Part shown: positions 12,507 through 43,817 of the stretch, one piece after another | Numbering within the stretch: the first letter of the stretch is position 1 | Layout: each line of letters begins with the position of its first letter | From: Bacteroidales bacterium | Lineage (GTDB): Bacteria > Bacteroidota > Bacteroidia > Bacteroidales > UBA12077 | NCBI GenBank assembly: GCA_028282585.1 | Contig: JANQHR010000081.1 | Location: 1 to 43,817, forward strand | DNA length: 43,817 nucleotides | Reading direction: 5' to 3' | Notes under the pieces: model-generated | What the model was told of the DNA's origin: nothing | Database searches by the model: none | The model's input: the letters and a program-made list of their open reading frames with translations, nothing else | Program-made: the position numbers and the translations under genes

Positions 12507-13967
12507 TTAATTACCTCTTCTACCTCTTTCTCTTGAAGAACCAACAACTACAATATTTTTATACACACCTCTCTTTTGTGAATTTCCTTCTCTGTCTGAT
12601 CTGCTTACAACTCCTAACTGAACTATGTAAGTTCCAATGGTTGTGTAAATATGCCTTGCTTCGATTCCCCGTGTTTTTCTGCCGTCACCAAAATCCCAAT
12701 AATATTTATATATTTCAAAATCTGTAATATTCGTTTTTCTGCCGTCAAATACTACTTCCTGTCCCACCTCCACCGTATCGGGACAATTAATATAAACTTG
12801 CACAATATCCTCAATTTTAAGAGGATAAGTTGCTTGTGTATAAAAAACCTCGCCAGTTAATTTATCGATAACATTTAATTCCAGAGTATAATCACCAGGG
12901 CCACTAAAGCAGTGTTCTACCTCTAACCCTCTTGCCTTATAACCATCTCCAAAGGACCATTCATATTCTAGCATCGAAGTATCAGGATTTTCTGCCCCTT
13001 CCTCATAAAGAACGTAACAATAATTATTTTCTTCCTGACGTTGAGAATTCTCAAACATTGGATATAATGGTGTAAAAACATAAATATCATCTGATCTCCG
13101 TTGCCGGTCTGAGCTAAACATTCCAGATTTTTTAAATGCATCTATGATAAAGCCAAAATCATTATACCTGGTGTTTATAGGAGGATCCATGGCAATTGGT
13201 CTGTGCCATTCTCCATTTACTTGTTCAGTATAAAATATATCTAACCTTCCTTTTCCTTCATGTCCGTCCGAGGAAAAGTAAAGTCTGCCAGTACTATGAA
13301 TAAATGGAAAATATTCATTTCCTTCTGTATTTACTGTTGGTCCCAAGTTTTGAGGAGCTCCCCAGCCTCCGCCTTGAGCCTCGCATACATAAATATCTGT
13401 TCCTCCAAATCCTCCATCCATATCAGAAACAAAAAATAAATACCTTTCATCTTCACTCAAGGAAGGGTGTGCGACATTATAATCCGAATCATTATATCTA
13501 AAAGGAGTTGGAGTACTCCAACCACCGGTTCTTCTACTGTATTTTGAATAATATATTCCTAATCTATTGTTCTTATCGATAAAATTACCTATTCGTTTTT
13601 TAACATTTAAATTTCTTGTAAAATACATTTCAGATCCACGACTATTAAAGGTAGCAGGTCCCTCATTAAGATGAGTACGAAATTCTTCATTAAAAGTCTC
13701 AGGATCTCCCCATTCATTTCTTCCAACCTCTTCAACTATAAAAATATCTAAAGCAGGTAAACTTTCTTTTTCATCCGTATAATCGATAAACATGGTATTT
13801 TTTCGATTTGAGCAAAATACAATATCTCCTCTAAAATATACCGGTGCAAATTCATCGTACTTATTTGTACTAAACGGTAACAAACTTACCGAATAATCTT
13901 GTGAACTTGCAGGAGTACTAATTACACCTAGCAATACATATAGCCATATTTTCTTTATTTTTGCCAT
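12507..13967 (-). CDS. PD40 beta-propeller + two PKD domains, secreted
   Basis: PD40/PorE-like blades (FFVSDMDGGFGGTDIY, YFSSDGHEGKGRLDIF); PKD signatures WSFGDG and WDFGDG. Confidence 0.85.
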   Translation of the reverse strand: MAKIKKIWLYVLLGVISTPASSQDYSVSLLPFSTNKYDEFAPVYFRGDIVFCSNRKNTMFIDYTDEKESLPALDIFIVEEVGRNEWGDPETFNEEFRTHLNEGPATFNSRGSEMYFTRNLNVKKRIGNFIDKNNRLGIYYSKYSRRTGGWSTPTPFRYNDSDYNVAHPSLSEDERYLFFVSDMDGGFGGTDIYVCEAQGGGWGAPQNLGPTVNTEGNEYFPFIHSTGRLYFSSDGHEGKGRLDIFYTEQVNGEWHRPIAMDPPINTRYNDFGFIIDAFKKSGMFSSDRQRRSDDIYVFTPLYPMFENSQRQEENNYCYVLYEEGAENPDTSMLEYEWSFGDGYKARGLEVEHCFSGPGDYTLELNVIDKLTGEVFYTQATYPLKIEDIVQVYINCPDTVEVGQEVVFDGRKTNITDFEIYKYYWDFGDGRKTRGIEARHIYTTIGTYIVQLGVVSRSDREGNSQKRGVYKNIVVVGSSRERGRRGN

Positions 13968-13968
13968 A

Positions 13969-14910
13969 TTAAAAATATCTGGGGCTTGTAGCTCTAAATT
14001 TATATTTGAACTCGTAACGTAAAATCACTTCTAATGATCCATTATGTTGACCTGATAAATCTCCGCTAGCAATATCGTATGCAACGCCTGCTCTAATTTG
14101 TTCTGTAGCCTGGTATTCAGCCATGATGACCCATTCGTCGTCTCTTCTGTAAGAAAAGCCTGCCCAAATTGCATCGTATAAAATAAAATTTAAACTTCCA
14201 TCTATTTGATATGTGTTTTCTAATCGGTACCTAAATAAAACAGATGGTTTTAATTTAACCTTATCACTTAATTCGAATAAATATCCTCCTGTAACTAAGA
14301 AATCATAGTTGTTTGGTGATACTGACATTTTCTTTTGTGAACTTTCTATTTCGTATGATAATAATTTCGGCACAGATACTCCAACAAAGTAATTTTCGCT
14401 ATAATAATAAACTCCAAAACCAGCATTTGGGAATATTTCCGATTCATTTTCTAAAAGTAAATCATTTACTTCTCCCTCCGGATTAGCATTTATATCCGCA
14501 TAATCCCCTTGAAAAAACGTTGCTCCTGCTCTTAATCCTAATGAGACTCTTCCATTCCCAAGTTGAAATCTAAAAGCGTAGTTCCCAAATATGTCATAAT
14601 AGTTAGTTACACCAATTTCTTCATGAAATAAGAATAAACCTACTGCATTTTTTTCATCTTTAAATGGAGCATGGCTACTTAATGTTTGAGTAACCGGTGC
14701 GCCTTCAAATCCCATCCATTGGTTACGATATAATATAATGTTACTAAAAGATTCACGGCTTCCGGCATAAGCCGGATTAATTGCTAATCCATTTACCCAA
14801 TACTGACTATAAATTGGCTCATACCTTTGCCCAACCTTTAAACTACCATCCTGACTTAATCCCAATAATGGTATTAAAATAAAAAACCCTATGTATTGTA
14901 ATTTCTGCAT
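13969..14910 (-). CDS. T9SS PorP/SprF-family outer-membrane protein
   Basis: YSQY..NGLAINPAYAGS, YRNQWMGFEGAPVT, C-terminal SPRYF. Confidence 0.93.
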   Translation of the reverse strand: MQKLQYIGFFILIPLLGLSQDGSLKVGQRYEPIYSQYWVNGLAINPAYAGSRESFSNIILYRNQWMGFEGAPVTQTLSSHAPFKDEKNAVGLFLFHEEIGVTNYYDIFGNYAFRFQLGNGRVSLGLRAGATFFQGDYADINANPEGEVNDLLLENESEIFPNAGFGVYYYSENYFVGVSVPKLLSYEIESSQKKMSVSPNNYDFLVTGGYLFELSDKVKLKPSVLFRYRLENTYQIDGSLNFILYDAIWAGFSYRRDDEWVIMAEYQATEQIRAGVAYDIASGDLSGQHNGSLEVILRYEFKYKFRATSPRYF

Positions 14911-17900
14911 TAAAAGCGTTTAAGCACAATAAATCCTGTTTCAGTAACTGTACCTGAAGGTTTATATTTATAGAGTACAAAATAATATGTATCTTCAGAT
15001 AAATCTTTTCCATCATTATTTTTACCATCCCAACCTTCCTGGTTAGAATAGTTATCCAATCTGAAAACTTCCGTTCCCCAACGATTATAAATTATTAATT
15101 CGTTTCTATAATTTTCATTCAATCCATAAACAAAAAGAACATCATTTACACCATCGCCATTAGGTGTAAATCCGTTAGGCACAAAAGTAAAATCTCTCAC
15201 TTCAACTTTACGGGTAATTGTGGTATCCAGGCAGACTCCTTTTTTCACATACCATTCTACCGTAAATTCTCCTACTCCTGATTCCTCCGTCCACGCGTAG
15301 TTTGCTTCATTTTCCAAACTATCACCAATTGTAATGAAACTGTTATCCGTTCTCCATACACTATAAATTACCTCACCGAAACTACTGTTTCTATAGTTTC
15401 CCTTAACAGGCAGTTCCAGTACATTAAAAATAATAGTGTCGACATCAACATTAGCAATAGAATCATCAGGACTAATAATTTGGACATTCGTTAGATTTTC
15501 GTACATACTAATTTCTACTGTATCTGCATCCTGGCAATTCCAATTTGATTTTGACCAAATGTAATTGTAAGTTAAAGCTGAATCAACCGTAATAAATGGA
15601 TTCTCTATCTCCGTATTCGAAAATATTGTTGTTCCATCGGCAGGAATTTGAGTCCATATTCCATTCCCAAAAATTGGAGTTGCAGATAAGGTATAAGATA
15701 ATGAACAAACCTCATCATCGATTCCGGCAAAAGCTGTTGGAATTCCATATGCCATTACCACATCACTTCCGGTAATATCTACTGCCTGGCAAGTACTATC
15801 ATCCACCACCGATACGATCGTATAATCAAATTGCATGCTTTCAACATCCGAAACAGGATTAACAATTTCTGTAAAAGAGTTTGTTGTATTTATATTATTA
15901 ATATTATAAGACGAAAAACCGTCGCTATATGTTAATGTATATGGCTGAACACCTGAGGTTATTTTAAACTCGAGAGAAGTAGCATCACCACTGCAAACCG
16001 TATCAAGATCATTTGTTATTACAGCAATAGGTAAAAGATTAATATTGACTTCTATTGTATCACTTATGCTGGAACAACAATCATCCTGACCTGACACCAC
16101 TAATCTTCTATAAAAAATCGTATCTGTTAATGCCCCAGGTTGATAATCCTCATTTGTTCCGTTTGCAACAACATTGCTCCAGGAAACTCCATCCGTACTT
16201 TCCTGCCATTGATATCTATATGTTCCATCTCCATTAGTTGGTGTAGAGCCATTTATTAGCTCCGGTTGAGTATTATAGCAAGTATAAATCTTGGAACCGT
16301 TTTCAATAAAGTCATTACTTATTGGAAGTAACACATTTATTCTGATAGAATCGCTAATATCAATACAATCGTCAGATTGCACAGTTCTTCTATAATATGT
16401 GGTTTCAATAAGGTTTGAAGGCGCAAAATCTTTTCTTAATGAATCATTTATAACCGCCCAGGGAGTTCCGTCAGTTCTTTTTTCCCAATAATAAGCATAA
16501 GTTCCATCGCCTTTATCCGGCAAGGCTCCAATAATTTCATCAGGAATCTGACCCTCACATATTTCTTGATTTTCGGAAATAACATTGTTTGATATTTGAG
16601 GCAAACCAATAATTTCAATATTGGAAGTTGTATCGTAACAAGCCCCGGATTTAACTATACGTCGCACATAGGTTGTATCCAAAACCGTTCCGGGTAAGCA
16701 AATGGTATCATTTAAGAGTAATACAGAAGACCAAGAACCCTGATCAGTTCTTTGCTCCCAAAAATATTCATACGTAAAATTATCACCACCACTATCCAGT
16801 TGGATTCTTGTTCCTGTTATTGTATCTGCTTGATTACCTACACATATTATTAAGTCATCTCCAAATATATTATTATTAACGATTCGTTCCTGAACAATTA
16901 TTTGTATAATATTCCCTTTATCCGTAACAGCAGCAGACTCCACAATTCGCTGATAATATGTTGTATCTGATAATGCTGGTGGCTGGTAATCTTTACTGGT
17001 TGCACCAGCTATTTGCGTCCAGTTTTCACCATCAGGGCTATCGTACCACTCGTAAGAATATGTTCCGTCTCCTCCACGAGGTTCTGTACCAGAGATTAAA
17101 TTTGGAACTTGGTCTTTACATATTACCTGATCATCAGAAATCCAATTAAATAAGAAACCAGTTAATGGTACATCTGTTCCGGCTTCAGGAAAACCTTCAG
17201 CTCCCGGTTCTGCTTTATGTCTTTGAATATCAGGAAATAAATTTTCAGCATAACCCGAATTACCAGGTTCTGCATCAAAATCCGGAATAGCTTTATAATA
17301 CACAACCGGTCCGCCACCTCCGCCACCTCCAGGTCCAGATTGCTCATGAATTGCCACTCTACCGCCATTTCCACCATTGGTAGATATTCCAAAATTGCCT
17401 TCAATGTATTCAACATCAAAAACTACTCCACCTCCGGCTCCACCACCTCCGGCAGAAGCAGTAGCAATATCCATAACACTCTCTCCCTCCGCCAGTATAC
17501 TATCTCCATTAGATTTTATTACTTTTGCAATTATAATGACTATTCCACCACCATTTCCACCGGCTGTGGCCACAAATCCATCGGAATAAGTTCCCGAGCC
17601 TCCACCTCCTCCCATAAATATCGTATTATCGTCTATATAATCCTTTAAACCAAAACCTCCGGTACCTCCTAATGCATTCCAGTACTTTTCACCACCACCA
17701 CCGATATAATCCGGACTATCTTCAAAAGCCGGTGTAGTGCAAACAGATACATCTTCCTCCCCTCCAAAACCTCCTAAACCGGAACTACCACCGCCGCCAC
17801 CACCAGAAAACCTGGCATTACCTCCTCCTCCTCCATTGGCCCATTTACCAAATCCTTTTCGATATGTAGTATCAAAGCTTGCAATACCTTCTGCTTTGAA

Positions 17901-18548
17901 TCCTGCGCTTATTGTATCACGGCTTTCTTTAAAACTATTTGAACTATAAACCAGAGAATCTCTACTTGCACAATTATCTCCATAACTTAAAAAATCATAA
18001 TAGAATGGCTGTGCTCCCTTAAATCCTTTTCCTGACACGTCGATAGAATCATTTAGGAACAAGGTATCGCCAACCATAAGAACCACAATTCCACCTGTTC
18101 TGTCAGTATGATCCCATGGTTTACAAGTTATAGTACCATCTACAACCGCACTTTTATAAGAAGGAACCCTAATTATTTGTACAAATTCGTCAATATCATA
18201 ATCATTACTAAGAATTGCTTTTAAAATTAACCTGTTTCCTTCAACTTCTTGAACTAAAATAATTTCATATTTTCCTGCTTCTTTTATTTGCGTTCCACTA
18301 ACATCTCCGAATAAATATGGAAAACCAACTACATTAGGATTTGCCCCCTTTGCCTGGTAGATCATTATAGTATCATTTTCACCAAATAATGATGGATTAG
18401 AAACTTCAATGGTATCTTTAGTAGGATAAATAGAATCTACCGCAGCATATGAATTAATTATCCCTGAAATGGATGTTTGAGAAAAACCCAGGTGAGATAT
18501 AAAAATAAAAAAACCAATAATTAATATGGTTAAATTCTCCCTTTTCAA
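14910..18548 (-). CDS. Large T9SS type B CTD surface protein with glycine-rich domain and Ig-like repeats
   Basis: Type B CTD FVPNGFTPNGDGVND..IYNRWG..WDG..TYYF; poly-Gly motifs; about four GDGTY.Y.W..TTYYRR.V.S repeats; TTG start; TAATG overlap with the porP-like gene. Confidence 0.9.
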   Translation of the reverse strand: MKRENLTILIIGFFIFISHLGFSQTSISGIINSYAAVDSIYPTKDTIEVSNPSLFGENDTIMIYQAKGANPNVVGFPYLFGDVSGTQIKEAGKYEIILVQEVEGNRLILKAILSNDYDIDEFVQIIRVPSYKSAVVDGTITCKPWDHTDRTGGIVVLMVGDTLFLNDSIDVSGKGFKGAQPFYYDFLSYGDNCASRDSLVYSSNSFKESRDTISAGFKAEGIASFDTTYRKGFGKWANGGGGGNARFSGGGGGGSSGLGGFGGEEDVSVCTTPAFEDSPDYIGGGGEKYWNALGGTGGFGLKDYIDDNTIFMGGGGGSGTYSDGFVATAGGNGGGIVIIIAKVIKSNGDSILAEGESVMDIATASAGGGGAGGGVVFDVEYIEGNFGISTNGGNGGRVAIHEQSGPGGGGGGGPVVYYKAIPDFDAEPGNSGYAENLFPDIQRHKAEPGAEGFPEAGTDVPLTGFLFNWISDDQVICKDQVPNLISGTEPRGGDGTYSYEWYDSPDGENWTQIAGATSKDYQPPALSDTTYYQRIVESAAVTDKGNIIQIIVQERIVNNNIFGDDLIICVGNQADTITGTRIQLDSGGDNFTYEYFWEQRTDQGSWSSVLLLNDTICLPGTVLDTTYVRRIVKSGACYDTTSNIEIIGLPQISNNVISENQEICEGQIPDEIIGALPDKGDGTYAYYWEKRTDGTPWAVINDSLRKDFAPSNLIETTYYRRTVQSDDCIDISDSIRINVLLPISNDFIENGSKIYTCYNTQPELINGSTPTNGDGTYRYQWQESTDGVSWSNVVANGTNEDYQPGALTDTIFYRRLVVSGQDDCCSSISDTIEVNINLLPIAVITNDLDTVCSGDATSLEFKITSGVQPYTLTYSDGFSSYNINNINTTNSFTEIVNPVSDVESMQFDYTIVSVVDDSTCQAVDITGSDVVMAYGIPTAFAGIDDEVCSLSYTLSATPIFGNGIWTQIPADGTTIFSNTEIENPFITVDSALTYNYIWSKSNWNCQDADTVEISMYENLTNVQIISPDDSIANVDVDTIIFNVLELPVKGNYRNSSFGEVIYSVWRTDNSFITIGDSLENEANYAWTEESGVGEFTVEWYVKKGVCLDTTITRKVEVRDFTFVPNGFTPNGDGVNDVLFVYGLNENYRNELIIYNRWGTEVFRLDNYSNQEGWDGKNNDGKDLSEDTYYFVLYKYKPSGTVTETGFIVLKRF

Positions 18549-28184: not shown

Positions 28185-29690
28185 TTATTGACAATGTAAG
28201 TATTTCATTACCAATTCTCTTAACTCTTCTTCTTTACCAAACAATCTTTCACTTAAATCTTTATCTTTATAAGACTTAAGCTCGTTAGCAACCTGATCAA
28301 GTGTTCCTGCAGGGAAGATACCATTCTTTTCAAAAAAATCACGTTTTTCTATTAACTTATCTGCAGATTCCCAACAAGATTGTGGCAAATATTCAAGCTT
28401 CTCTAATTTATCTTTATGAGCTTCATCAAAAATATTTACATCCATATAAAGCTTTTCAGCCATATCCAATGCATTAGGCATTTCCAATCCATGCTGAGCT
28501 GCAACCACTATACCAGCCATAAATAAATAAATATTTGCAGAACCATCGCCAGATCTTAATTCCACAGTCTGTTTACCGGGAACGTAAGGAATTACACCTG
28601 TTTCTTGAGGATTAGCATTTTTAATCATACTTGTATCTGCTATCCATCCTAATGGAACTCGAACCAAAACAGAACGGTTTCTGTCCCCCCAACAAATATT
28701 TGTTGGTGCCTCCTGATGAGGAACTAATCTTAAATACGAAGTTGGTATAGTATTTCCAAATGCCGTTAACGGAGCAGCCAAATCTAATATTCCCGCCACC
28801 ATTTTTTTAGCTTCAGGACTTAAACCTTCACCTTCAACCATCATATTACAACCATCCTTCTCAATTAGCATATGAACATGTAATCCGCTTCCAGCCTTGC
28901 CAACTGTAATTTTTGGAGCAAAACTGATGTTAACACCATATTGGTCTCCAAGCATTCTTAAAATCCATTTTGCAATTACTAATTGATCAACTGCATCCTG
29001 TGGATCAACTGGTAAGAATTCAATTTCTTGTTGTTCATAAAGCATATCTCCGCTTTCAAAGTTTCCAACTTCCGAGTGTCCGTATTTAATTTGCCCACCA
29101 CACTGCGAAATTAAACTCATTGCCTCTTTACGAATATGACCATTTTTTGTAAACGGTGGAGATTCATGGTATCCTTTTTGATCAACTCCCGGATACATAT
29201 CTTCTTTCTCACTAACTACATAATATTCCAACTCCCCCATCGCCTTAAAATCATATCCGGTAGATTTACGAAATTCTTCAGTTGCTTTTCTTAGGATATG
29301 TTCAGGTGCACTTTCTAAAGGCTCTCCTTCTCTTGTATAGAAGCTACATAAAATGTCTAAAGTTGGATAATCTGAAAATGGATTTACAAAAGCTGTTTTA
29401 AATCTGGGGATAACATATAAATCGCTTGATCCAGCTTCGATGTATGAAAACAAGCTTGATCCGTCAACTCTTTCTCCGGTTGAAAATAAGTCTTCCAAAT
29501 GTTGTTTACTGTTTAATACAAAATTTAACGATTTTAACTTTCCATCTTCTCCAACATAACGGAAGTTAACCATCTCAATTTCGTTTTCTTCAATAAAATA
29601 GATAATATCCTGACGTGTAAATTCAGATGCCGGTTTCTTTAAAAACTGAACCAATGGGTTCGGATTTAATCTAATTTCTAATTCTTTCAT
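28185..29690 (-). CDS. glnA: Glutamine synthetase type I-like protein
   Basis: DGSSL, GELEYY, HSEVG, GSGLHVH, SYLRLVPHQEAP, WGDRNRSVLVRVP and ELRSGD motifs. Confidence 0.88.
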   Translation of the reverse strand: MKELEIRLNPNPLVQFLKKPASEFTRQDIIYFIEENEIEMVNFRYVGEDGKLKSLNFVLNSKQHLEDLFSTGERVDGSSLFSYIEAGSSDLYVIPRFKTAFVNPFSDYPTLDILCSFYTREGEPLESAPEHILRKATEEFRKSTGYDFKAMGELEYYVVSEKEDMYPGVDQKGYHESPPFTKNGHIRKEAMSLISQCGGQIKYGHSEVGNFESGDMLYEQQEIEFLPVDPQDAVDQLVIAKWILRMLGDQYGVNISFAPKITVGKAGSGLHVHMLIEKDGCNMMVEGEGLSPEAKKMVAGILDLAAPLTAFGNTIPTSYLRLVPHQEAPTNICWGDRNRSVLVRVPLGWIADTSMIKNANPQETGVIPYVPGKQTVELRSGDGSANIYLFMAGIVVAAQHGLEMPNALDMAEKLYMDVNIFDEAHKDKLEKLEYLPQSCWESADKLIEKRDFFEKNGIFPAGTLDQVANELKSYKDKDLSERLFGKEEELRELVMKYLHCQ

Positions 29691-36259: not shown

Positions 36260-37504
36260 GTGAATACAGAACTTTTTATAGCAAAACGTATATACTCTGA
36301 TAAAACAGTAAAAAAGGGAATATCGCAGCCCATTGTTTCAATAGCAGTTTTTGGAATAGCGTTAGGCTTAGCTGTAATGATACTCTCTGTTGCAATTGTT
36401 ACCGGATTTAAATCTGAAATCAGCAATAAAGTAATTGGGTTTGGTTCGCACATTCAAATCGTAAATTACGATGCAAATATTTCTTTTGAAACAACCCCTA
36501 TCAATAAAAATCAACCTTTTTATGTGGATATTGAAAATCTAAAAGGCATAAAATCACTACAAGAATTTGCTATTAAAGCAGGAATCATAAAAACCAAAAC
36601 CGATATACAGGGAATTGTACTTAAGGGTGTTGATAAATCCTTTGATTGGACATTTTTTGATGAAAGCATGATAGAAGGAAATTCTTTCAGAGTAACAGAC
36701 ACATCCAAAACAAATGATATCATTGTTTCTAAGTATTTGGCTAATCTTTTGAATTTAAACGTAGGCGATAGAATTGCAGCTTATTTTATTCAGGATCCTC
36801 CAAGAATGAGGCCATTTAAAATTACCGGAATATATGAAACAAGCCTGGCAGAATTCGATGAAAAATTTGCTTTAGTTGACATCAAACATATTCAGAGATT
36901 AAATAATTGGACCGAAGATCAAATTACCGGCTTTGAAGTTTTAATTGATGATTATTCTGAAATGGATGAAATGACCAGGGACGTTCGCGATATCGTTGGA
37001 TTTCATTTCAATCCGGATGGAACCAAGTTAAGAGTGATAAGTATTAAAGAAAAATACCCTCAAATGTTTGATTGGTTAAATCTAACCGATATGAATGTTT
37101 ATATAATTCTGGCCTTAATAATTGCTGTAGCAGGGTTTAATATGGTCTCGGGACTGTTAATTATAATCCTGGAAAGAACTAATATGATAGGTATATTAAA
37201 GGCTGTAGGTACAAGGAATTGGTCAATCCGAAAAATATTTTTATATCAGTCAGGATTTCTAATTTCAAAAGGATTATTCTGGGGAAACATAATTGGTATT
37301 GCGATATGTATCATGCAATCCCAATTTCAAATTTTTAAATTAGATCCTACCTCTTATTATCTTGATGCAGTTCCAATTAATTTAAAAGTCTGGCATATTT
37401 TAGCCTTAAATTCTGGTACCTTAATAACAACAGTACTAATGCTGGTAGTTCCGTCCTATATCATATCAAAATTAAGCCCTGAAAAAACTATCAGATTTAA
37501 TTAA
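36260..37504 (+). CDS. LolC/E-family lipoprotein-releasing ABC permease
   Basis: FIAKR..IAVFGIALG, ILERTNMIGILKAVG and LDPTSYY motifs; GTG start; TACATTTG promoter motif at 36163-36170. Confidence 0.88.
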   Translation: MNTELFIAKRIYSDKTVKKGISQPIVSIAVFGIALGLAVMILSVAIVTGFKSEISNKVIGFGSHIQIVNYDANISFETTPINKNQPFYVDIENLKGIKSLQEFAIKAGIIKTKTDIQGIVLKGVDKSFDWTFFDESMIEGNSFRVTDTSKTNDIIVSKYLANLLNLNVGDRIAAYFIQDPPRMRPFKITGIYETSLAEFDEKFALVDIKHIQRLNNWTEDQITGFEVLIDDYSEMDEMTRDVRDIVGFHFNPDGTKLRVISIKEKYPQMFDWLNLTDMNVYIILALIIAVAGFNMVSGLLIIILERTNMIGILKAVGTRNWSIRKIFLYQSGFLISKGLFWGNIIGIAICIMQSQFQIFKLDPTSYYLDAVPINLKVWHILALNSGTLITTVLMLVVPSYIISKLSPEKTIRFN

Positions 37505-38101
37505 ATTTTACCAGAAACTAATCTTAAAAGATCAAAACAATATCAAATAAATTTTATAAACTTTCATATAGTTTGCATTTAGAACGAGTATTTATATGTT
37601 TTGTGCGACTATAAATACAATTGAAACAATATAGTTTGCATTATATACATACATTAATATAATAAAAACGATATTTTATACATTATACACGATTTTTAAA
37701 ATAGAAAACACGTATAATAATATACTTAGAACGATCATAAATACATAATTAAAGGCGATAGATACAATTCAAACGATTAATTATTTATAATCCTTTTTTT
37801 TATGGCTACTTACCACTACCTGAAAAACAATTCCATTACATTCATACATTATAGTCGGTCTAAACAAATTTAAATTGCAATTGCCCCAACCTGTAAAATT
37901 CATATCCAAATTTTAATTTGCATTTTGGAATCTTCTTATTAATATCAATTACTCGGTTACAAACATTTTCTACAACATTATTTCCAAACTGTTTCAGATG
38001 TAGATTTCTTATCGTACTTTTTTTTTACTAATTTAACGCTCTTTCAAAGCATATATATGTGCTTTAAAATTCTAATCCTAAAACATACAAGTTATTATAC
38101 T

Positions 38102-40093
38102 ATGAAAAAAAATAATTGCCCCGAAATTACTGAATTCAACCCTCAAAAAAATTATGAACAAACCCGGCAGGAGATAGGATACGTTAAAAGAAAAGAAGCT
38201 ACAAAAGCCGATTACGAAAGAATTGGTTTTATGTCTGGTTTAGAAGTTCACCAACAATTAAAAACCAAAGAAAAACTATTTTGCCATTGCCCTGCAGGGA
38301 TCTATCATGATAATGATGATTACGATGCCGAAGTTATCCGTCATATGCGTCCAACTTTAAGTGAATTGGGAGAATATGATGGTACAGCTCTGATGGAATA
38401 CAAAACACGAAAAGAAATAGTATATCGATTAAATAATAAAACCGCCTGCACCTACGAAGTTGATGATACTCCACCTTTTAAAATTGATAAAGAAGCTTTA
38501 GAATACGCTTTGGAAATCTCATTGCTCTGTAAATTAAATATTGTAGGCGAAGTTCACATTACAAGAAAGCAATATCTGGATGGAAGTATACCAACCGGAT
38601 TTCAGAGAACAGCTATTTTAGGTGTAGAAGGTGAAATTCCACTTAAAAATAAAAAAGTAAGGTTAATTCAACTAAGTATTGAAGAGGATTCCTGTCGTGA
38701 AATCTCTGATATAAGACACACGAGAATTTATAAAACGGACCGATTAGGAATGCCTTTGATTGAAACCGTTACCTACCCGGATATGTTAACACCTGATGAA
38801 TTAAAAGAAGCAGCGGAATATATTAGATTTTTAAACAGAAGTACAGGTAAAGTTAGAGTTGGCAGTGGTGCAGGCCGAGAAGATGTTAATGTAAGCTGTA
38901 AAGGAGGAACGCGCGTTGAAATAAAAGGTGTTTCCTATAATAGGATGATTCCCGAATTGTCACACAACGAAGCTTTCCGCCAGTGGGCTCTGTTAAATGT
39001 TCGCGGCAAATTAAATGATAAGATTAAGGATGCCTCCAAATGGAAAATGCAACATCAGGAAATTGATTATCGCGATTATGAATTAAAATATGAACCCATT
39101 ACAGACGGATTAATAGATAAATACAGAATTATAGCGGTAAACCTTCCAGGCTTTAAAGGAATTTTATCACACTTTACTCAACCAGGAAAGATTTTTGCCA
39201 ATGAGATTTCTGATAGACTAAAGGTAATTGCTTGTTTGGAAAAACCCAATATGGTTCACTCTGAAGAGTTAGAAACAAAAGTTATCGAAGAAAACTTCTG
39301 TAAGCTACAAGAACTTTTTGATGCAAGCGATAATGATGCTCAAATTATTTTCTGGGCTCCCGATGAAGATATTCCTACAGCATTAGAAACTATCGAAGAA
39401 AGATGCCAAATGGCCTTTGAAGGAGTTCCTCCAGAAACAAGAAAATCTTTCTTGGATGGAACCTCCATATTTGAGAGAGTTCTACCTGGAGCAGATAGGA
39501 TGTACCCAGATACAGATTCGGCACCAATTCCATTGGAAAATAGTTATATTGATAATTTAAGTAAAAACTTACCTACAGATATAATTGACAGGTATAAACA
39601 ACTTAAAACGTGGAAAATTCCTGAAGACACATTCAGATTTATTTTTAGAAATAACTTGTTCCCATTAATTGAAAAAATCATTCAAGACTTAAAGTTAAAT
39701 CCTACCTTCATTGGCACATTTATCGGGCACAAATTAAAATTTGTAGAAGGACATTATACTTCCGCCGAAAAGTTTGAATACTCCAAAATTTACGATCTGT
39801 TTAAATTTCTTATCGATAACAATCTGGACATTCAGTTAAGTAAAAAAATGATTCCGGTAGTTTATGAACACCCAAAAATGGATTTTGATTCAATCTTAAC
39901 AAGCATAAACTTCAAGAAAATACCTAAAGAGGAAATACTGTCTAAAATTCCTTTTTTAAAACAGAAATTCTCCGAAATCAAAATATCAAAAAATGACTCA
40001 GTAGCTAAACAATGGATCATGGGAGAGTTACAAAAAACTGCAATAGGAAATATTTCTCCGGATGTATTAGCTAAAGCAATTGAGCAAAATTAA
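38102..40093 (+). CDS. gatE: Glu-tRNA(Gln) amidotransferase subunit E
   Basis: DYERIG..GLEVHQQL, KLFC, RPTLSELGE, DGS..TGFQRT, EED, DRLGMPLIE, DVNVS..GG.RVEIKGV; a GAD-like insertion (HSEEL, GVPPETR); LPGADRMYPDTD. ATG 38102 is preferred over 38057. Confidence 0.93.
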   Translation: MKKNNCPEITEFNPQKNYEQTRQEIGYVKRKEATKADYERIGFMSGLEVHQQLKTKEKLFCHCPAGIYHDNDDYDAEVIRHMRPTLSELGEYDGTALMEYKTRKEIVYRLNNKTACTYEVDDTPPFKIDKEALEYALEISLLCKLNIVGEVHITRKQYLDGSIPTGFQRTAILGVEGEIPLKNKKVRLIQLSIEEDSCREISDIRHTRIYKTDRLGMPLIETVTYPDMLTPDELKEAAEYIRFLNRSTGKVRVGSGAGREDVNVSCKGGTRVEIKGVSYNRMIPELSHNEAFRQWALLNVRGKLNDKIKDASKWKMQHQEIDYRDYELKYEPITDGLIDKYRIIAVNLPGFKGILSHFTQPGKIFANEISDRLKVIACLEKPNMVHSEELETKVIEENFCKLQELFDASDNDAQIIFWAPDEDIPTALETIEERCQMAFEGVPPETRKSFLDGTSIFERVLPGADRMYPDTDSAPIPLENSYIDNLSKNLPTDIIDRYKQLKTWKIPEDTFRFIFRNNLFPLIEKIIQDLKLNPTFIGTFIGHKLKFVEGHYTSAEKFEYSKIYDLFKFLIDNNLDIQLSKKMIPVVYEHPKMDFDSILTSINFKKIPKEEILSKIPFLKQKFSEIKISKNDSVAKQWIMGELQKTAIGNISPDVLAKAIEQN

Positions 40094-40109
40094 ATTCATT
40101 TTAAACCCA

Positions 40110-40125
40110 CCTGCCAGCTGGCAGG
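40110..40125. repeat. Perfect 16-bp GC-rich palindrome
   Basis: cctgccagctggcagg in the gatE-gatD spacer. Confidence 0.8.
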
Positions 40126-40141
40126 ATCAAATTCTAAAATA

Positions 40142-41527
40142 ATGAGCGAAGATATATTTCAAGGATATAAAGGTAAAGCACTAGAAATACTTAAAAAATA
40201 TAATGTAAGAGTTTGGGGACAGGCAGTAATCCAAACTACCAGAGGTAACTTTGAAGGCACGGTACTTCCCAGAGCCGAAAATGATGATGATATTCACATT
40301 GTATTAAAGATTGTTACAGGATACAATATTGGTATCGATATCGGTACCATAAAAGATATGAAAGAAACTGGCTATAAAAAAGCTAACTATAAAATTCCCG
40401 AGAAAGAATTTCCGACAACTAAAGGACTACCAAGCGTTAAACTTTTTGGAACAGGAGGAACTATTGCTTCCCGATTGGATTACAGAACTGGTGCTGTAAT
40501 TCCAGCTTTCTCTCCAGGTGAATTATATGGCGCTGTTCCCGAACTTGCAGACATTTGTAACCTAACTACCGAAAAAGTATTTGCAGTTTTTAGTGAAAAT
40601 ATGGGCCCTAAGCAATATATTGCACTTGCTAAAGCAATTGGAGAAGAAATCAAGAATGGAATTGATGGTATCGTTATTGGTCACGGAACTGACACTTTGC
40701 ATCATACAGGTGCAGCATTAACCTTTATGGTTCAAAACTCTCCAGTTCCAATTGTATTAGTGGGTTCGCAGCGCTCTTCGGACCGTCCCAGCTCCGATGC
40801 TGCATTGAATTTAATGCATGCTATGAAAACAGCCGGACACTCGGATATTGCCGAAATAATGGTTTGTATGTTTGGCCCAACATCTGATGAATATGGGCTT
40901 TTACATAAAGGTACAAGAGTCAGAAAAATGCACTCATCATATCGATCCACATTTAGAACAATTGGCGACACCCCATTGGCCACAGTTGATAGAAATAAAA
41001 TTACTCCAATCAAACAAAACTATAAACATAGACGAAAAGACAGAGATGTTGACATTCTTCCATATTTCTCAGACAAAGTAACTATGTTATATTATTACCC
41101 GGGAATGAAACCTGATACAATTGATAGCTTAGTTGATAGTGGCTATAAAGGAATTGTAATTGTAGGAACAGGACTTGGCCATGTAAATAAAGAATTGTAT
41201 CCAGCTATCGAAAGAGCGAACAAAAAAGGAGTTATGATGTATATGACATTACAGACACTTTGGGGATATGTTCATATGTTTGTATATGATACGGGAAGAG
41301 ATATGATGGCAAAAGGAATCATTCCTGCAGGAAATATGTTACCAGAAGTAGCCTTTATTAAATTAGGTTGGGCTTTGGGACAAACCGAAGATCCGGAAGA
41401 AGTAAAACGAATTATGTTAACACCAATTAATGATGAAATTACAACAAGAGAGCCATATAATGGTTACCTAATCTACCAGGGCGGTGTTCCGGAAGTAGAA
41501 GATTTTGTGAAAAAGTTTAGAAAATAA
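40142..41527 (+). CDS. gatD: Glu-tRNA(Gln) amidotransferase subunit D
   Basis: GatD-type N-terminal domain (G.VLPR...D..HIVLK..TGYNIGI) plus asparaginase core TGGTIASRLDYRTGAV, HGTDT, GSQRSSDRPSSDA, GTRVRKMHSS.R..F. Confidence 0.94.
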   Translation: MSEDIFQGYKGKALEILKKYNVRVWGQAVIQTTRGNFEGTVLPRAENDDDIHIVLKIVTGYNIGIDIGTIKDMKETGYKKANYKIPEKEFPTTKGLPSVKLFGTGGTIASRLDYRTGAVIPAFSPGELYGAVPELADICNLTTEKVFAVFSENMGPKQYIALAKAIGEEIKNGIDGIVIGHGTDTLHHTGAALTFMVQNSPVPIVLVGSQRSSDRPSSDAALNLMHAMKTAGHSDIAEIMVCMFGPTSDEYGLLHKGTRVRKMHSSYRSTFRTIGDTPLATVDRNKITPIKQNYKHRRKDRDVDILPYFSDKVTMLYYYPGMKPDTIDSLVDSGYKGIVIVGTGLGHVNKELYPAIERANKKGVMMYMTLQTLWGYVHMFVYDTGRDMMAKGIIPAGNMLPEVAFIKLGWALGQTEDPEEVKRIMLTPINDEITTREPYNGYLIYQGGVPEVEDFVKKFRK

Positions 41528-41530
41528 AAA

Positions 41531-42163
41531 ATGTTTGCTGATTTTTTTGAAATATTAAAAGCAGAATTAAAGAAAGATTTACCTGGAGAAAAAGCCCAGG
41601 TTAAAATGGCTCCAGGTGTTAGGAGCCATTTTAAGACTTCAGCAAAAAGTAGAAAGGCGGGTGTTCTGATTTTAATTTACCAGAAAGATCAAAACTTATA
41701 TGTTTCCTTTATACAACGTACCGAATACAATGGCCCGCATAGTGGACAAATCTCTTTCCCTGGAGGAAAATCCGAAAAAAGTGATAAAAATATATTTGAA
41801 ACCGCTTTACGGGAAAGTAATGAGGAAATAGGAATCAACCCCGATTTAGTTGAAATTTACGGACAACTTACACCACTGCATATCCCAATAAGTAATTTCA
41901 TTGTTTATCCGGTAATAGGTATTTATAAAGGAGTTCCTGATTTCCTTATTGATCCTGCTGAAGTTAAAAAAATTATTGAGGTAAAATTAAAGGACCTCCT
42001 TGATCCGAAATATTGTACAACAAAAGAATTTAATTACGGTGATCTTTCCTTTATGGCCCCTATTTATAATCCAAATGATTTAACAATATGGGGTGCTACA
42101 GCAATGATACTATCAGAATTTCTTGAAATTGTTAAAAATAACTATTCTAAGTTTCAGGTATGA
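41531..42163 (+). CDS. Nudix CoA pyrophosphatase (NudL-like)
   Basis: HSGQISFPGG..TALRESNEEIG, NP/DP.EV and IWGATA motifs. Confidence 0.9.
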   Translation: MFADFFEILKAELKKDLPGEKAQVKMAPGVRSHFKTSAKSRKAGVLILIYQKDQNLYVSFIQRTEYNGPHSGQISFPGGKSEKSDKNIFETALRESNEEIGINPDLVEIYGQLTPLHIPISNFIVYPVIGIYKGVPDFLIDPAEVKKIIEVKLKDLLDPKYCTTKEFNYGDLSFMAPIYNPNDLTIWGATAMILSEFLEIVKNNYSKFQV

Positions 42164-43580
42164 TATTTTTGTAATGCTCATATCGATCTAGAATCTGATA
42201 AACATAATTGTAGGTTTCAGATCCTCTACAGTATCCATACTTAACTATAGGATCTTTATAATACTTAGGATTTGATTTCTTTAAAATGTATTCATCAACA
42301 TTTTTTTCCCAAACATCCGGATCTTTACCTTCTTTTTCGGCTAATCTTCTGGCATCTAAAATATGCCCTAAACCAACATTATAGGAAGCCAAAATAAATT
42401 TAATTTTTTCTTCTTCATCTGTAATTCCTCTGTTTTCAAATCTTTTATTGAGCCATTTTATAAAATCAACACCTGCTTTTATATGCTTTTCTGGCGGAGA
42501 ATTTCGATTAACACCAAATCTTTGAGCTGTTGTAGGCATTAACTGCATTAAACCAAATGCCCCGGCCCATGATTTTACATTAGGCTTAAACCTGGATTCC
42601 TGGTAAATTAAAGAAGCTAACAATCTCCAATCCCAATCAATGTCCTTACTATATTTTTTGATGTAATCATCATAATTTGATACCCTTCCACTCGTAATAG
42701 CATAAAAGTCACTTTCTACAATTCTTACCGAACGTGGATTCTTAAAGTATTTATTATAAATTAAAGCATAATTAAGTGAACCCTTAAAATCTTTCAACCA
42801 TGTATCTATTTCCTTTTTTAATAAGTCATCACCTTTTCTTATCCCCCAAGCTAAATTTTGAGGAAAACTAACCGCTGTTTTAACATCTAAAACTGGATAA
42901 TAAATTTGATTTACCATTGCAACATTTTCATCTGCGACAGTATATTCAATTTCTCCATTAGCTACCAATTCAATTAATTCTTCAACCTCTTTATCAGTTT
43001 GCTCAATTAAATTGATACTATCACCAATCTCATCCGATAAATTATACATTCTTTGGGCATGTGATGAACCTTTTTGTACATATATAACCTTACCAGCTAA
43101 ATCAAGCTGATTACGTAGTAACTCCTTTTCCAACTCTTCATTTGATAAATCTTTCCAGTTTTCAGGTTTTCTTTGAACCAAAACCTGGCGTGTTTGGCTA
43201 TGTGGGTATGTAAAGTCAATAACTTTTGACCTTTCTTTTGTTACCGTAAGATTAATACCTATAATATCGCATTCACCTTTCTGTAACATCTCAAAGTTTC
43301 TGTCAATATCATTTTCAACTTTTACTTCTAGTTTAACCCCTAGATGATCAGCTAAAAGTTGAAGTAACTCATACTGATATCCCATGGGTTCTCCTCTATA
43401 TATAAAATAATTAGTTGAATTATAATCCATTACTGCAATTAAAGTTCCTCTCTTTTGAATCTTTTCAATTGAGTTAAGATTAACAAAGGACTCTTTTTGC
43501 TTCTCTTTACAGGTATTAAGAGTAACAAATAATAGTATTAGTAGTGCAGGAAACTTTAGAACTTTAAAAAATTCTTTCAA
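42147..43580 (-). CDS. mltF: MltF-like lytic transglycosylase (SBP_bac_3 + SLT)
   Basis: YFIYRGEPMGYQYEL substrate-binding domain; YQESRF, GLMQLMP and ASYNVGLGH SLT motifs; TAACTTTG promoter motif on the minus strand at 43636-43643. Confidence 0.88.
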   Translation of the reverse strand: MKEFFKVLKFPALLILLFVTLNTCKEKQKESFVNLNSIEKIQKRGTLIAVMDYNSTNYFIYRGEPMGYQYELLQLLADHLGVKLEVKVENDIDRNFEMLQKGECDIIGINLTVTKERSKVIDFTYPHSQTRQVLVQRKPENWKDLSNEELEKELLRNQLDLAGKVIYVQKGSSHAQRMYNLSDEIGDSINLIEQTDKEVEELIELVANGEIEYTVADENVAMVNQIYYPVLDVKTAVSFPQNLAWGIRKGDDLLKKEIDTWLKDFKGSLNYALIYNKYFKNPRSVRIVESDFYAITSGRVSNYDDYIKKYSKDIDWDWRLLASLIYQESRFKPNVKSWAGAFGLMQLMPTTAQRFGVNRNSPPEKHIKAGVDFIKWLNKRFENRGITDEEEKIKFILASYNVGLGHILDARRLAEKEGKDPDVWEKNVDEYILKKSNPKYYKDPIVKYGYCRGSETYNYVYQILDRYEHYKNIIPET

Positions 43581-43757: not shown

Positions 43758-43817
43758 TCGGCGGCGACCTACTCTCCCACAAACGCAGTACCATCGGCGC
43801 TAACGGGCTTAACTTCT
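43758..43817 (-). rRNA. rrf: 5S rRNA, 3' portion (runs off the window)
   Basis: ggcggcgacctactctccc..gcagtaccatcggcgc..gggcttaacttct is the reverse complement of the conserved 5S 3' half. Confidence 0.93.

Follow-up and report, generated by a model that had tools for sequence, protein, structure and literature searches.

Can a bacterium that charges tRNA(Gln) directly also hold the amidation route to Gln-tRNA(Gln) that is regarded as archaeal? The question is raised by a 43,817-nt stretch of Bacteroidales DNA (hereafter the window), which is one entire contig (JANQHR010000081.1) of a 4.89-Mb, 173-contig assembly (GCA_028282585.1; 98% complete, 3.9% estimated contamination) and carries adjacent genes for GatE and GatD, the two subunits of the tRNA-dependent amidotransferase GatDE. 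Passages in earlier papers state that GatDE "occurs exclusively in archaea" (PMC2811023) or is "an archaeal signature protein" (PMC2330236), and a passage in PMC9499178 takes the same archaea-only view. The window genes encode genuine GatE and GatD orthologues, not GatB and AnsA, and are intact and chromosomal. The family itself is known, and databases already carry names such as "GatE [Bacteroidales bacterium]"; what is new is a bacterial clade with an altered GatE tail and a redundant-looking genomic setting. The initial annotation of the window, made from its letters, knew of no functional description of the bacterial genes, and none was found in print: a full-text literature search, in which coverage of subscription journals was limited and an earlier mention is possible, returned no paper describing GatDE in bacteria.

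Orthologues of archaeal GatE and GatD

The gatE and gatD genes are intact and adjacent on the same strand, with a 48-nt spacer between them (Table 1). The longest gatE reading frame starts at 38057 (678 aa); because the GatE proteins of relatives are 663 aa long, the start was placed at the ATG at 38102, as in the initial annotation. The protein scored above the cut-offs of two NCBIfam GatE equivalog models (NF003107, 471.7 bits, cut-off 456; TIGR00134, 410.3 bits, cut-off 319.55), and GatB models gave 46–124 bits against cut-offs of 315–680 (best 124.2 against 338). The low GatB scores, the length and the presence of an insertion domain place it outside the GatB family. Its best matches in the Protein Data Bank (PDB) were 2d6f_C (279 bits) and 1zq1_C (273 bits). 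A structural model folded from a 40-row alignment (mean predicted local distance difference test score (pLDDT) 89.9, predicted template modelling score (pTM) 0.88) matched archaeal GatE with Z 37.0 for 2d6f_D (511 residues aligned) and Z 34.1 for a second structure.

All of the expected domains were recovered in this model. The cradle contains the motifs GLEVHQQL, CTYEVDDTPP, RKQYLDGS, GFQRT, SIEEDSCR, DRLGMPLIE, REDVNVS and RVEIKGV. Residues 311–441 matched insertion domains of aspartyl-tRNA synthetase (AspRS) with Z 8.1–10.8, including 1eqr_A (Z 10.2) and the bacterial AspRS 6wom_A (Z 10.8, root-mean-square deviation (RMSD) 2.4, 112 residues aligned), while the tail matched YqeY 8xjg (Z 7.6, RMSD 2.1, 53 residues aligned), a modest Z for a helical unit. 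Pfam models of the GAD insertion and the GatB_Yqey tail went undetected in GatE, although the folded model shows both domains. The full-length GatE with a GAD-like insertion proposed in the initial annotation is therefore upheld by the equivalog models and by the fold match of the insertion that Pfam missed. GatB of the GatCAB amidotransferase is a paralogue of GatE with the same chemistry and a common cradle, helical and tail fold (Z 27–31), and GatB chains align with the GatE model up to residue 663. It differs in lacking the insertion domain, in its length of ~480 aa and in partnering GatA and GatC rather than an asparaginase-type subunit.

GatD exceeded the cut-offs of NF003217 (499.1 bits, cut-off 310) and TIGR02153 (495.6 bits, cut-off 324), and Pfam assigned both asparaginase domains (PF00710 and PF17763) and the GatD N-terminal domain (GatD_N, PF18195, 39.6 bits). 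The motifs GTGGTIAS (40448–40471), HGTDT (40682–40696), RSSDRPSSDA (40772–40801) and VRKMHSS (40919–40939) are present, and in the best PDB matches, 2d6f_A (387 bits) and 1zq1_A (382 bits), the Thr, Thr-Asp and Lys motif blocks were aligned; the N-terminal domain and the catalytic motifs had both been noticed in the initial annotation and are confirmed here. Type I L-asparaginase (AnsA) likewise has the asparaginase N and C domains, and GatD scored 373 bits with the model of the type I asparaginase subfamily. It differs from AnsA in its higher scores on the GatD equivalogs (~496–499 bits), in its N-terminal domain and in being paired with gatE. The host genome has a further, shorter asparaginase-like gene at another site (C84:2776-3801). 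The pair has the architecture of archaeal GatDE (M. thermautotrophicus 2D6F, P. abyssi 1ZQ1), namely the cradle, AspRS-like insertion, helical and YqeY-like tail domains of GatE, and the N-terminal domain, type I asparaginase fold and Thr/Thr-Asp/Lys motifs of GatD.

Table 1 Coordinates of the features of the window
Feature	Position	Strand	Description
gatE	38102..40093	+	663 aa; NCBIfam GatE equivalogs above cut-off; tRNA-dependent kinase/transamidase subunit
GatE cradle (catalytic) domain, ~aa 36-300	38207..39001	+	Pfam GatB_N, 151 bits
GatE-specific AspRS-like (GAD-type) insertion, aa 311-441	39032..39424	+	fold match to AspRS insertion domains
GatE YqeY-like tail, aa 605-663	39914..40090	+	fold match to YqeY 8xjg
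Clade-specific tail motif WIMGELQKTAIGN	40013-40051	+	replaces archaeal LMG..MK..RGK.DGK
16-nt perfect palindrome CCTGCCAGCTGGCAGG	40110..40125	+	in gatE-gatD spacer; no T tract after
gatD	40142..41527	+	461 aa; asparaginase-type glutaminase subunit; NCBIfam GatD equivalogs
NUDIX hydrolase gene	41531..42163	+	Pfam NUDIX; NCBIfam CoA pyrophosphatase 91.8 bits, below cut-off 134
5S rRNA, 3' part, cut by contig end	43756..43817	-	RF00001, 35.4 bits, E 2.6e-4, model positions 48-120

Distribution, phylogeny and constraint

The gene order valS-DUF1573-aminotransferase-namZ-lolE-gatE-gatD-nudix-mltF was common to six genomes of the same genus, one of them a single-contig chromosome (G008), which removes the concern that the locus is a chimera of assembly. 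In a survey of 40 relatives, GatE was over the cut-off in 19 of 24 congeners, with contig-cut pieces in two more, and the three congeners without it are 63–91% complete. It was also over the cut-off in 4 of 16 other families of the order; a fifth family had GatD only, in a 700-contig assembly. GatD followed the same pattern as GatE among the relatives. In the two other families of the order that were compared, synteny was limited to the gatE-gatD pair. Among 250 further genomes drawn evenly from the phylum, all of them at least 90% complete, 12 were holders; these belong to other classes and are concentrated in a few families.

A one-genome-per-species scan of bacteria and archaea gave at least 600 GatE matches, 598 of which were confirmed and the best 80 of these examined. 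The best 80 come from records titled as bacteria, except one titled only "metagenome", and represent at least nine phyla. Of these records, 49 belong to Bacteroidota and include the cultured Marinifilum flexuosum DSM 21950, Labilibaculum sp. K2S and Perlabentimonas gracilis, and the rest are assigned to Ignavibacteriota, Cloacimonadota, Planctomycetota, Aminicenantes/Acidobacteriota, Zixibacteria, WOR-3, Omnitrophota, Rhodothermota and Chlorobiota, with a few unreliable-looking labels. In 69 of these 80 bacterial loci gatD follows gatE, and in 8 of the remaining 11 a contig end cuts the locus; of the three genomes with an unlinked gatE, two have gatD elsewhere. Apart from gatE-gatD itself, no neighbouring gene family and no tRNA(Gln) gene recurred beside the pair across phyla in the best 80 loci. 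A search for plasmid and phage carriers gave a single match, a 987-kb Natrinema replicon at 34% identity, and none in phages. Records titled Eubacteriales, Lentisphaeria, Thermotogae and Hyphomicrobiales (L049, L057, L065, L064, L103, L105, L114) have GatEs that nest among Bacteroidales and Ignavibacteria, and the automatic taxon labels of these co-assembled metagenome-assembled genomes (MAGs) look unreliable.

A search of 1.84 billion representative proteins with GatE gave 598 matches below E 1e-30. These fall into an upper tier of 43–54% identity (400–620 bits), against the typical archaeal level of 30–38% identity, and a profile of the lower tier retrieved archaeal names only (Asgard, Bathyarchaeia, Thermoprotei, Nezhaarchaeales and Pyrohabitans). 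In a GatB-rooted maximum-likelihood tree of 109 rows (IQ-TREE, LG+G4, short search), the window protein lay in the GatE clade, with GatB as the outgroup, which answers the check on GatE/GatB grouping that had been called for. One 71-row clade comprised all bacterial rows and the entire upper tier (Shimodaira–Hasegawa-like approximate likelihood ratio test (SH-aLRT) 100, stem 0.28). Sister to it (support 84) was an unnamed sequence with archaeal clusters as its closest neighbours in the atlas, and the archaeal-named rows, except three labelled Thermoplasmatota, formed a separate clade. A 193-row FastTree tree agreed. The taxon labels that the protein atlas gives for the basal tier are coarse and mixed.

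Phyla are intermixed inside the bacterial clade, Cloacimonadota and Ignavibacteriota each being scattered over several positions, a pattern that suggests transfer from one bacterial phylum to another. P0289, P0360 and P0367, labelled as Thermoplasmata or Thermoplasmatota archaeon, cluster tightly with the Bacteroidetes-labelled P0301, beside Zixibacteria. The Thermoplasmatota labels are doubtful, the sequences being either from mislabelled MAGs or else products of bacterium-to-archaeon transfer. A Thermoplasmatota donor was not accepted, given that the labelled proteins cluster with a Bacteroidetes one and that the cluster to which one of them belongs has a longest contig of 5.16 Mb.

A single ancient origin of the bacterial GatDE clade is well supported by these sequence trees, the base of which fixes neither the donor nor the direction of transfer. 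The clade was probably founded by one ancient acquisition from archaea, followed by spread between bacterial phyla. Because it spans many phyla, any transfer long predates the host genus, which inherited gatDE vertically. The old inter-domain transfer suggested in the initial annotation thus fits in that the bacterial clade stands apart from the named archaeal GatEs, but the pair is no peculiarity of one chromosome, being found in many phyla.

Both genes are under strong purifying selection. Among 32 archaeal-type GatEs, 75 alignment columns are conserved to at least 95%; the window GatE retains 71 of these over the whole protein, and 67 are kept at 90% or more across 30 rows from the crown of the bacterial clade. 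In comparisons with three congeners, nonsynonymous divergence (dN) was 0.067–0.092 for gatE and 0.032–0.044 for gatD, the latter the lowest of the eight genes compared. The ratio of dN to synonymous divergence (dS) was ~0.03 for gatE and 0.017–0.029 for gatD, no higher than that of the valyl-tRNA synthetase (ValRS) gene next door; dS is saturated and the ratios are rough. Identity across phyla is 67–94% for GatD and 44–89% for GatE.

Identity of GatE to the archaeal rows is uneven, with 42% in the cradle, 24% in the insertion, 28% in the helical domain and 16% in the tail. The archaeal tail motif, taken as the consensus of the archaeal rows used, is absent from the window GatE. The tail consensus WIMGqL..A(I/L)GN is fixed throughout the crown bacterial clade, and the basal bacterial tier retains RGR. 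Conservation of the changed motif within the crown clade is expected if tRNA binding is still selected. At the N terminus, crown GatEs are also extended by ~35 residues, which the model shows as helical.

GatDE in genomes with GlnRS

We tentatively read the pair as an active tRNA-dependent amidotransferase that is adapted to bacterial tRNA(Gln) and runs in parallel to glutaminyl-tRNA synthetase (GlnRS). The integrity and family of the genes, the catalytic residues and domains, the purifying selection, the wide distribution as a fixed pair and the co-occurrence with GlnRS are observed; that the pair is active as an enzyme, what it acts on, where Glu-tRNA(Gln) comes from and when the route is used are inferred. 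GatE would bind mischarged bacterial-type Glu-tRNA(Gln) with a U1-A72 pair and transfer phosphate to its glutamyl side chain; ammonia set free by GatD from glutamine or asparagine would then serve GatE to amidate the intermediate, giving Gln-tRNA(Gln). This route would run beside GlnRS, not instead of it, and might serve as a conditional or back-up supply, for instance when free glutamine is scarce and asparagine acts as the donor; alternatively, it might clear Glu-tRNA(Gln) made by an imperfectly discriminating glutamyl-tRNA synthetase (GluRS). According to passages in PMC2330236, archaeal GatD is inactive as a glutaminase without Glu-tRNA(Gln), and archaeal GatDE uses asparagine about as well as glutamine. 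Since the archaeal glutaminase needs Glu-tRNA(Gln), the fact that neither subunit has been lost speaks for a reaction coupled to tRNA.

In the host, the first pair is U1-A72 in tRNA(Gln) and tRNA(Asn) and G1-C72 in tRNA(Glu) and tRNA(Asp). A passage in PMC2811023 describes GatCAB as recognising bacterial tRNA(Gln) and tRNA(Asn) by U1-A72 and by the D-loop; the way in which tRNA(Gln) differs from tRNA(Glu) in the host thus makes discrimination by the first pair available. Unlike archaeal GatDE, the pair is found in a bacterial host that has GlnRS, GluRS of the bacterial type and tRNA(Gln) with U1-A72, and the pair itself differs in its changed GatE tail, its N-terminal extension, its fixed gatE-gatD order and its separate clade. 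In the closed Phycisphaerales chromosome G042, which has GatDE but no GlnRS, Glu-tRNA(Gln) must exist.

Several observations weigh against a parallel route to Gln-tRNA(Gln). GlnRS is present in the host (770.6 bits, over the cut-off); 40 of 41 relatives have it too, as do 22 of 24 holders from other lineages, so the third route to Gln-tRNA that the initial annotation proposed is, on the face of the genomes, not needed. That annotation had set glnS, combined with a lack of tRNA-dependent activity, against a role in translation, and the glnS half of this pairing was found. No genome relying clearly on GatDE alone was seen among those surveyed: G042, one of the two holders without GlnRS, has GatB and asparaginyl-tRNA synthetase (AsnRS) along with GatDE, and the other, the Rhodothermaceae assembly G053, is probably incomplete in gene content and does not give even the usual cross-match to GluRS. 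Rather than a non-discriminating (ND) GluRS and no GlnRS, the host has GlnRS and a single bacterial-type GluRS with a discriminating-type residue, Arg, aligned to Arg358 of the T. thermophilus enzyme. A relaxed GluRS in holders was rejected for want of any association, with Arg at this position in 21 of 21 GluRS (12 from holders, 9 from GatDE-negative genomes); the Arg358 evidence is weak because the determinant does not transfer between phyla, as a passage in PMC3927822 states. The one tRNA(Gln) found in the host, in an incomplete set of 36 tRNA genes, has U1-A72 and not the A1-U72 pair of archaeal tRNA(Gln) that GatDE reportedly reads (PMC2330236). A dedicated or extra tRNA(Gln) in holders was likewise rejected, UUG alone or UUG plus CUG being present in both groups; a BLAST search with the 74-nt host tRNA(Gln) found nothing in 2 of 5 holders and 3 of 5 non-holders and was probably too insensitive. 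Finally, the GatE tail, at 16% identity, has lost the basic residues of the archaeal motif.

The survey of glnS, gatCAB, asnS and gltX that had been suggested was completed with AsnRS (629.5 bits), and neither GatB nor GatA was over its family cut-off in the host genome. GatB was over the cut-off in 4 of the 41 relatives and in 5 of the 24 holders from other lineages. One congener (G014, C195:5547-6964) has a GatB frame interrupted by TAA, and four others have an intact GatB beside GatDE; within the genus, GatCAB seems to be in the course of being lost while GatDE is kept. Three holders in Acidobacteriota, Omnitrophota and Cloacimonadota records (G049, G052 and G055) have two separate GluRS-like frames of ~480–520 aa, and the second could be a second GluRS relevant to the source of Glu-tRNA(Gln). 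In one holder and one non-holder, glnS has a tRNA-Gln(CUG) gene as its immediate neighbour (G044:C1:1328531-1330291; G031:C4:32761-35032). A look for sequencing runs listed none of RNA, and a predicted complex of GatE residues 30–445 with the host GluRS scored 0.00 (mark 0.32); both are evidence for neither side.

Amide supply was also considered. Passages in PMC4206432 describe Deinococcus, Thermus and Bdellovibrio as keeping GatCAB alongside GlnRS and AsnRS, a likeness to the present case in that a tRNA-dependent amidotransferase is retained despite both direct synthetases, and explain the retained GatCAB as the only route to asparagine. This explanation does not carry over to the host, because AsnB and AsnA are present there; with AsnRS, AsnB and AsnA all encoded, GatDE as a necessary supplier of asparagine was rejected. 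The asnA gene is split over two contig ends (G000:C118:6-650 and G000:C98:2-382), so contigs C118 and C98 probably abut. A missing glutamine synthetase (GS) was ruled out by two GS-family genes, one a 731-aa frame on contig C74 and the other in the window (28185–29690, minus strand). The window gene adjoins valS, 8.4 kb upstream of gatE, and scored 180 bits on Gln-synt_C and 217 bits on the GlnA model, below its cut-off of 429.

The main alternative, though rather unlikely, is that the amidotransferase has been repurposed, with the same kinase and amidase chemistry acting on another substrate, be it Asp-tRNA(Asn), both amide tRNAs or an aminoacyl-tRNA outside translation. It draws on the fact that GlnRS already makes the canonical product in nearly all holders, on the U1-A72 pair that the host tRNA(Asn) has in common with tRNA(Gln), on the N-terminal segment added in the crown clade and on the divergence of the insertion (24% identity to archaeal rows), a domain that in archaea excludes ND-AspRS, as a passage in PMC2943598 reports. 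With AsnRS, AsnB and AsnA in the host, however, an asparagine route is no more needed than a glutamine route; the 71 of 75 conserved columns give no visible sign of a remodelled catalytic pocket, and no gene family that would indicate another pathway recurs next to the pair across phyla. Very unlikely, in our judgement, is a partnership of GatDE with GlnRS, a homologue of the archaeal-type GluRS, in place of GluRS, by which the charging of tRNA(Gln) would be corrected or modulated. GlnRS descends from the archaeal/eukaryal type of GluRS, and the two systems co-occur in the 40 of 41 and 22 of 24 genomes counted above. Archaeal GatDE, moreover, binds the archaeal ND-GluRS in a pocket of the GatE insertion domain (PMC2943598). 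Yet the co-occurrence may only mirror phyla that have GlnRS anyway, GatDE-negative relatives have GlnRS too, and G042 has GatDE without GlnRS.

That the pair is a functionless passenger or a decaying relic of horizontal transfer is suggested by its redundant look beside GlnRS, AsnRS and AsnA/AsnB, but is highly improbable: the frames are intact in the host and most congeners, dN/dS is ~0.02–0.03, the catalytic residues are kept, GatD is 67–94% identical across phyla and the pair is retained even when unlinked. An artefact of assembly or binning, in which an archaeal fragment was joined to a bacterial contig, might be feared from the 173 contigs, the 3.9% estimated contamination and the position of the pair 2.3 kb from a contig end; we give it next to no credence, since synteny in six congeners including the closed G008 refutes it, GC content matches the flanks and the nearest relatives are bacterial.

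Flanking features and implications

The genes around gatE-gatD are bacterial, of the kind usual in Bacteroidota chromosomes, and encode a LolE-like permease, NamZ, an MltF-like transglycosylase, a NUDIX protein, ValRS and PorP/SprF; further window genes include a GlnA-like gene, DUF1573, an aminotransferase, Era, Der and a type IX secretion cluster with CHU_C cargo. The GC content of the pair is 0.32–0.38, within the window range of 0.25–0.43. Of the 33 open reading frames (ORFs) of at least 100 aa, 30 were scanned (28 with Pfam, 2 with NCBIfam only), and none of these showed a transposase or integrase domain; the three left out of the scan are nested inside longer ORFs, and four of those scanned matched no family. 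Adjacency, host-like composition, bacterial neighbours and the lack of mobile-element genes alongside, all described in the initial annotation, therefore hold.

The NUDIX gene starts 3 nt past the gatD stop and may be co-transcribed with gatD; it is not part of the GatDE module, because its adjacency to gatD is kept only inside the genus. The palindrome in the gatE-gatD spacer might form a stem-loop in the mRNA. A scan of 37400–42300 found 30 promoter-like sites, not above the 22.2 ± 5.4 of shuffled sequences, and no terminator-like site on the plus strand. The lolE-gatE spacer (37505–38101) is ~600 bp long and very AT-rich, compared with 137–163 bp in five congeners, and contains short direct repeats, including two copies of ATATAGTTTGCATT 63 nt apart; it gave no Rfam match.

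The bacterial 5S rRNA reported nearby was recovered as a partial gene in a permissive scan, its score of 35.4 bits standing against an Rfam gathering score of 38, and at the gathering threshold Rfam gave no match in the window. The closed congener chromosome G008 has a full 16S-23S-5S operon at the corresponding place beside mltF (L032 1067-5838). The contig thus ends inside an rRNA operon, which accounts for the assembly break at 43817. Elsewhere in the window, the type IX secretion cluster (12507–18548, minus strand) encodes a PKD/PD40 protein, PorP/SprF and a 1212-aa protein with a CHU_C sorting domain, and the segment 17001–18000 within it has the highest GC content of the window, 0.43.

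A bolder proposal, to which we give a small chance, is that bacterial GatDE is no occasional import from archaea but an old, self-standing lineage, sister to archaeal GatDE and not nested in it, whose tail, insertion and N-terminus have been re-tuned to U1-A72 tRNAs and which provides a second route that bypasses GlnRS. If this were true, anaerobic bacteria of the Fibrobacteres–Chlorobi–Bacteroidetes (FCB) group and others would make Gln-tRNA(Gln), or both amide tRNAs, with the amide of asparagine when glutamine runs out; GatDE would be no archaeal signature, and the argument that its age reaches back to LUCA (the last universal common ancestor) would gain a bacterial witness.

Arguments about the entry of glutamine into the genetic code and about the amidotransferases of LUCA rest partly on the distribution of GatDE. 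In the present analysis GatDE is a chromosomal trait, stable and under strong constraint, of many bacteria already equipped with GlnRS. The result undercuts the usual genomic shortcut "no gatCAB means the indirect pathway is defunct", as applied to Bacteroidetes by PMC3927822; that paper classes the Bacteroidetes GluRS as discriminating since gatCAB is absent, and GatDE has 0 occurrences in it. The question posed is what role a second, archaeal-type amidation route has in a cell that charges tRNA(Gln) directly, and the cultured holders make it bench-testable.

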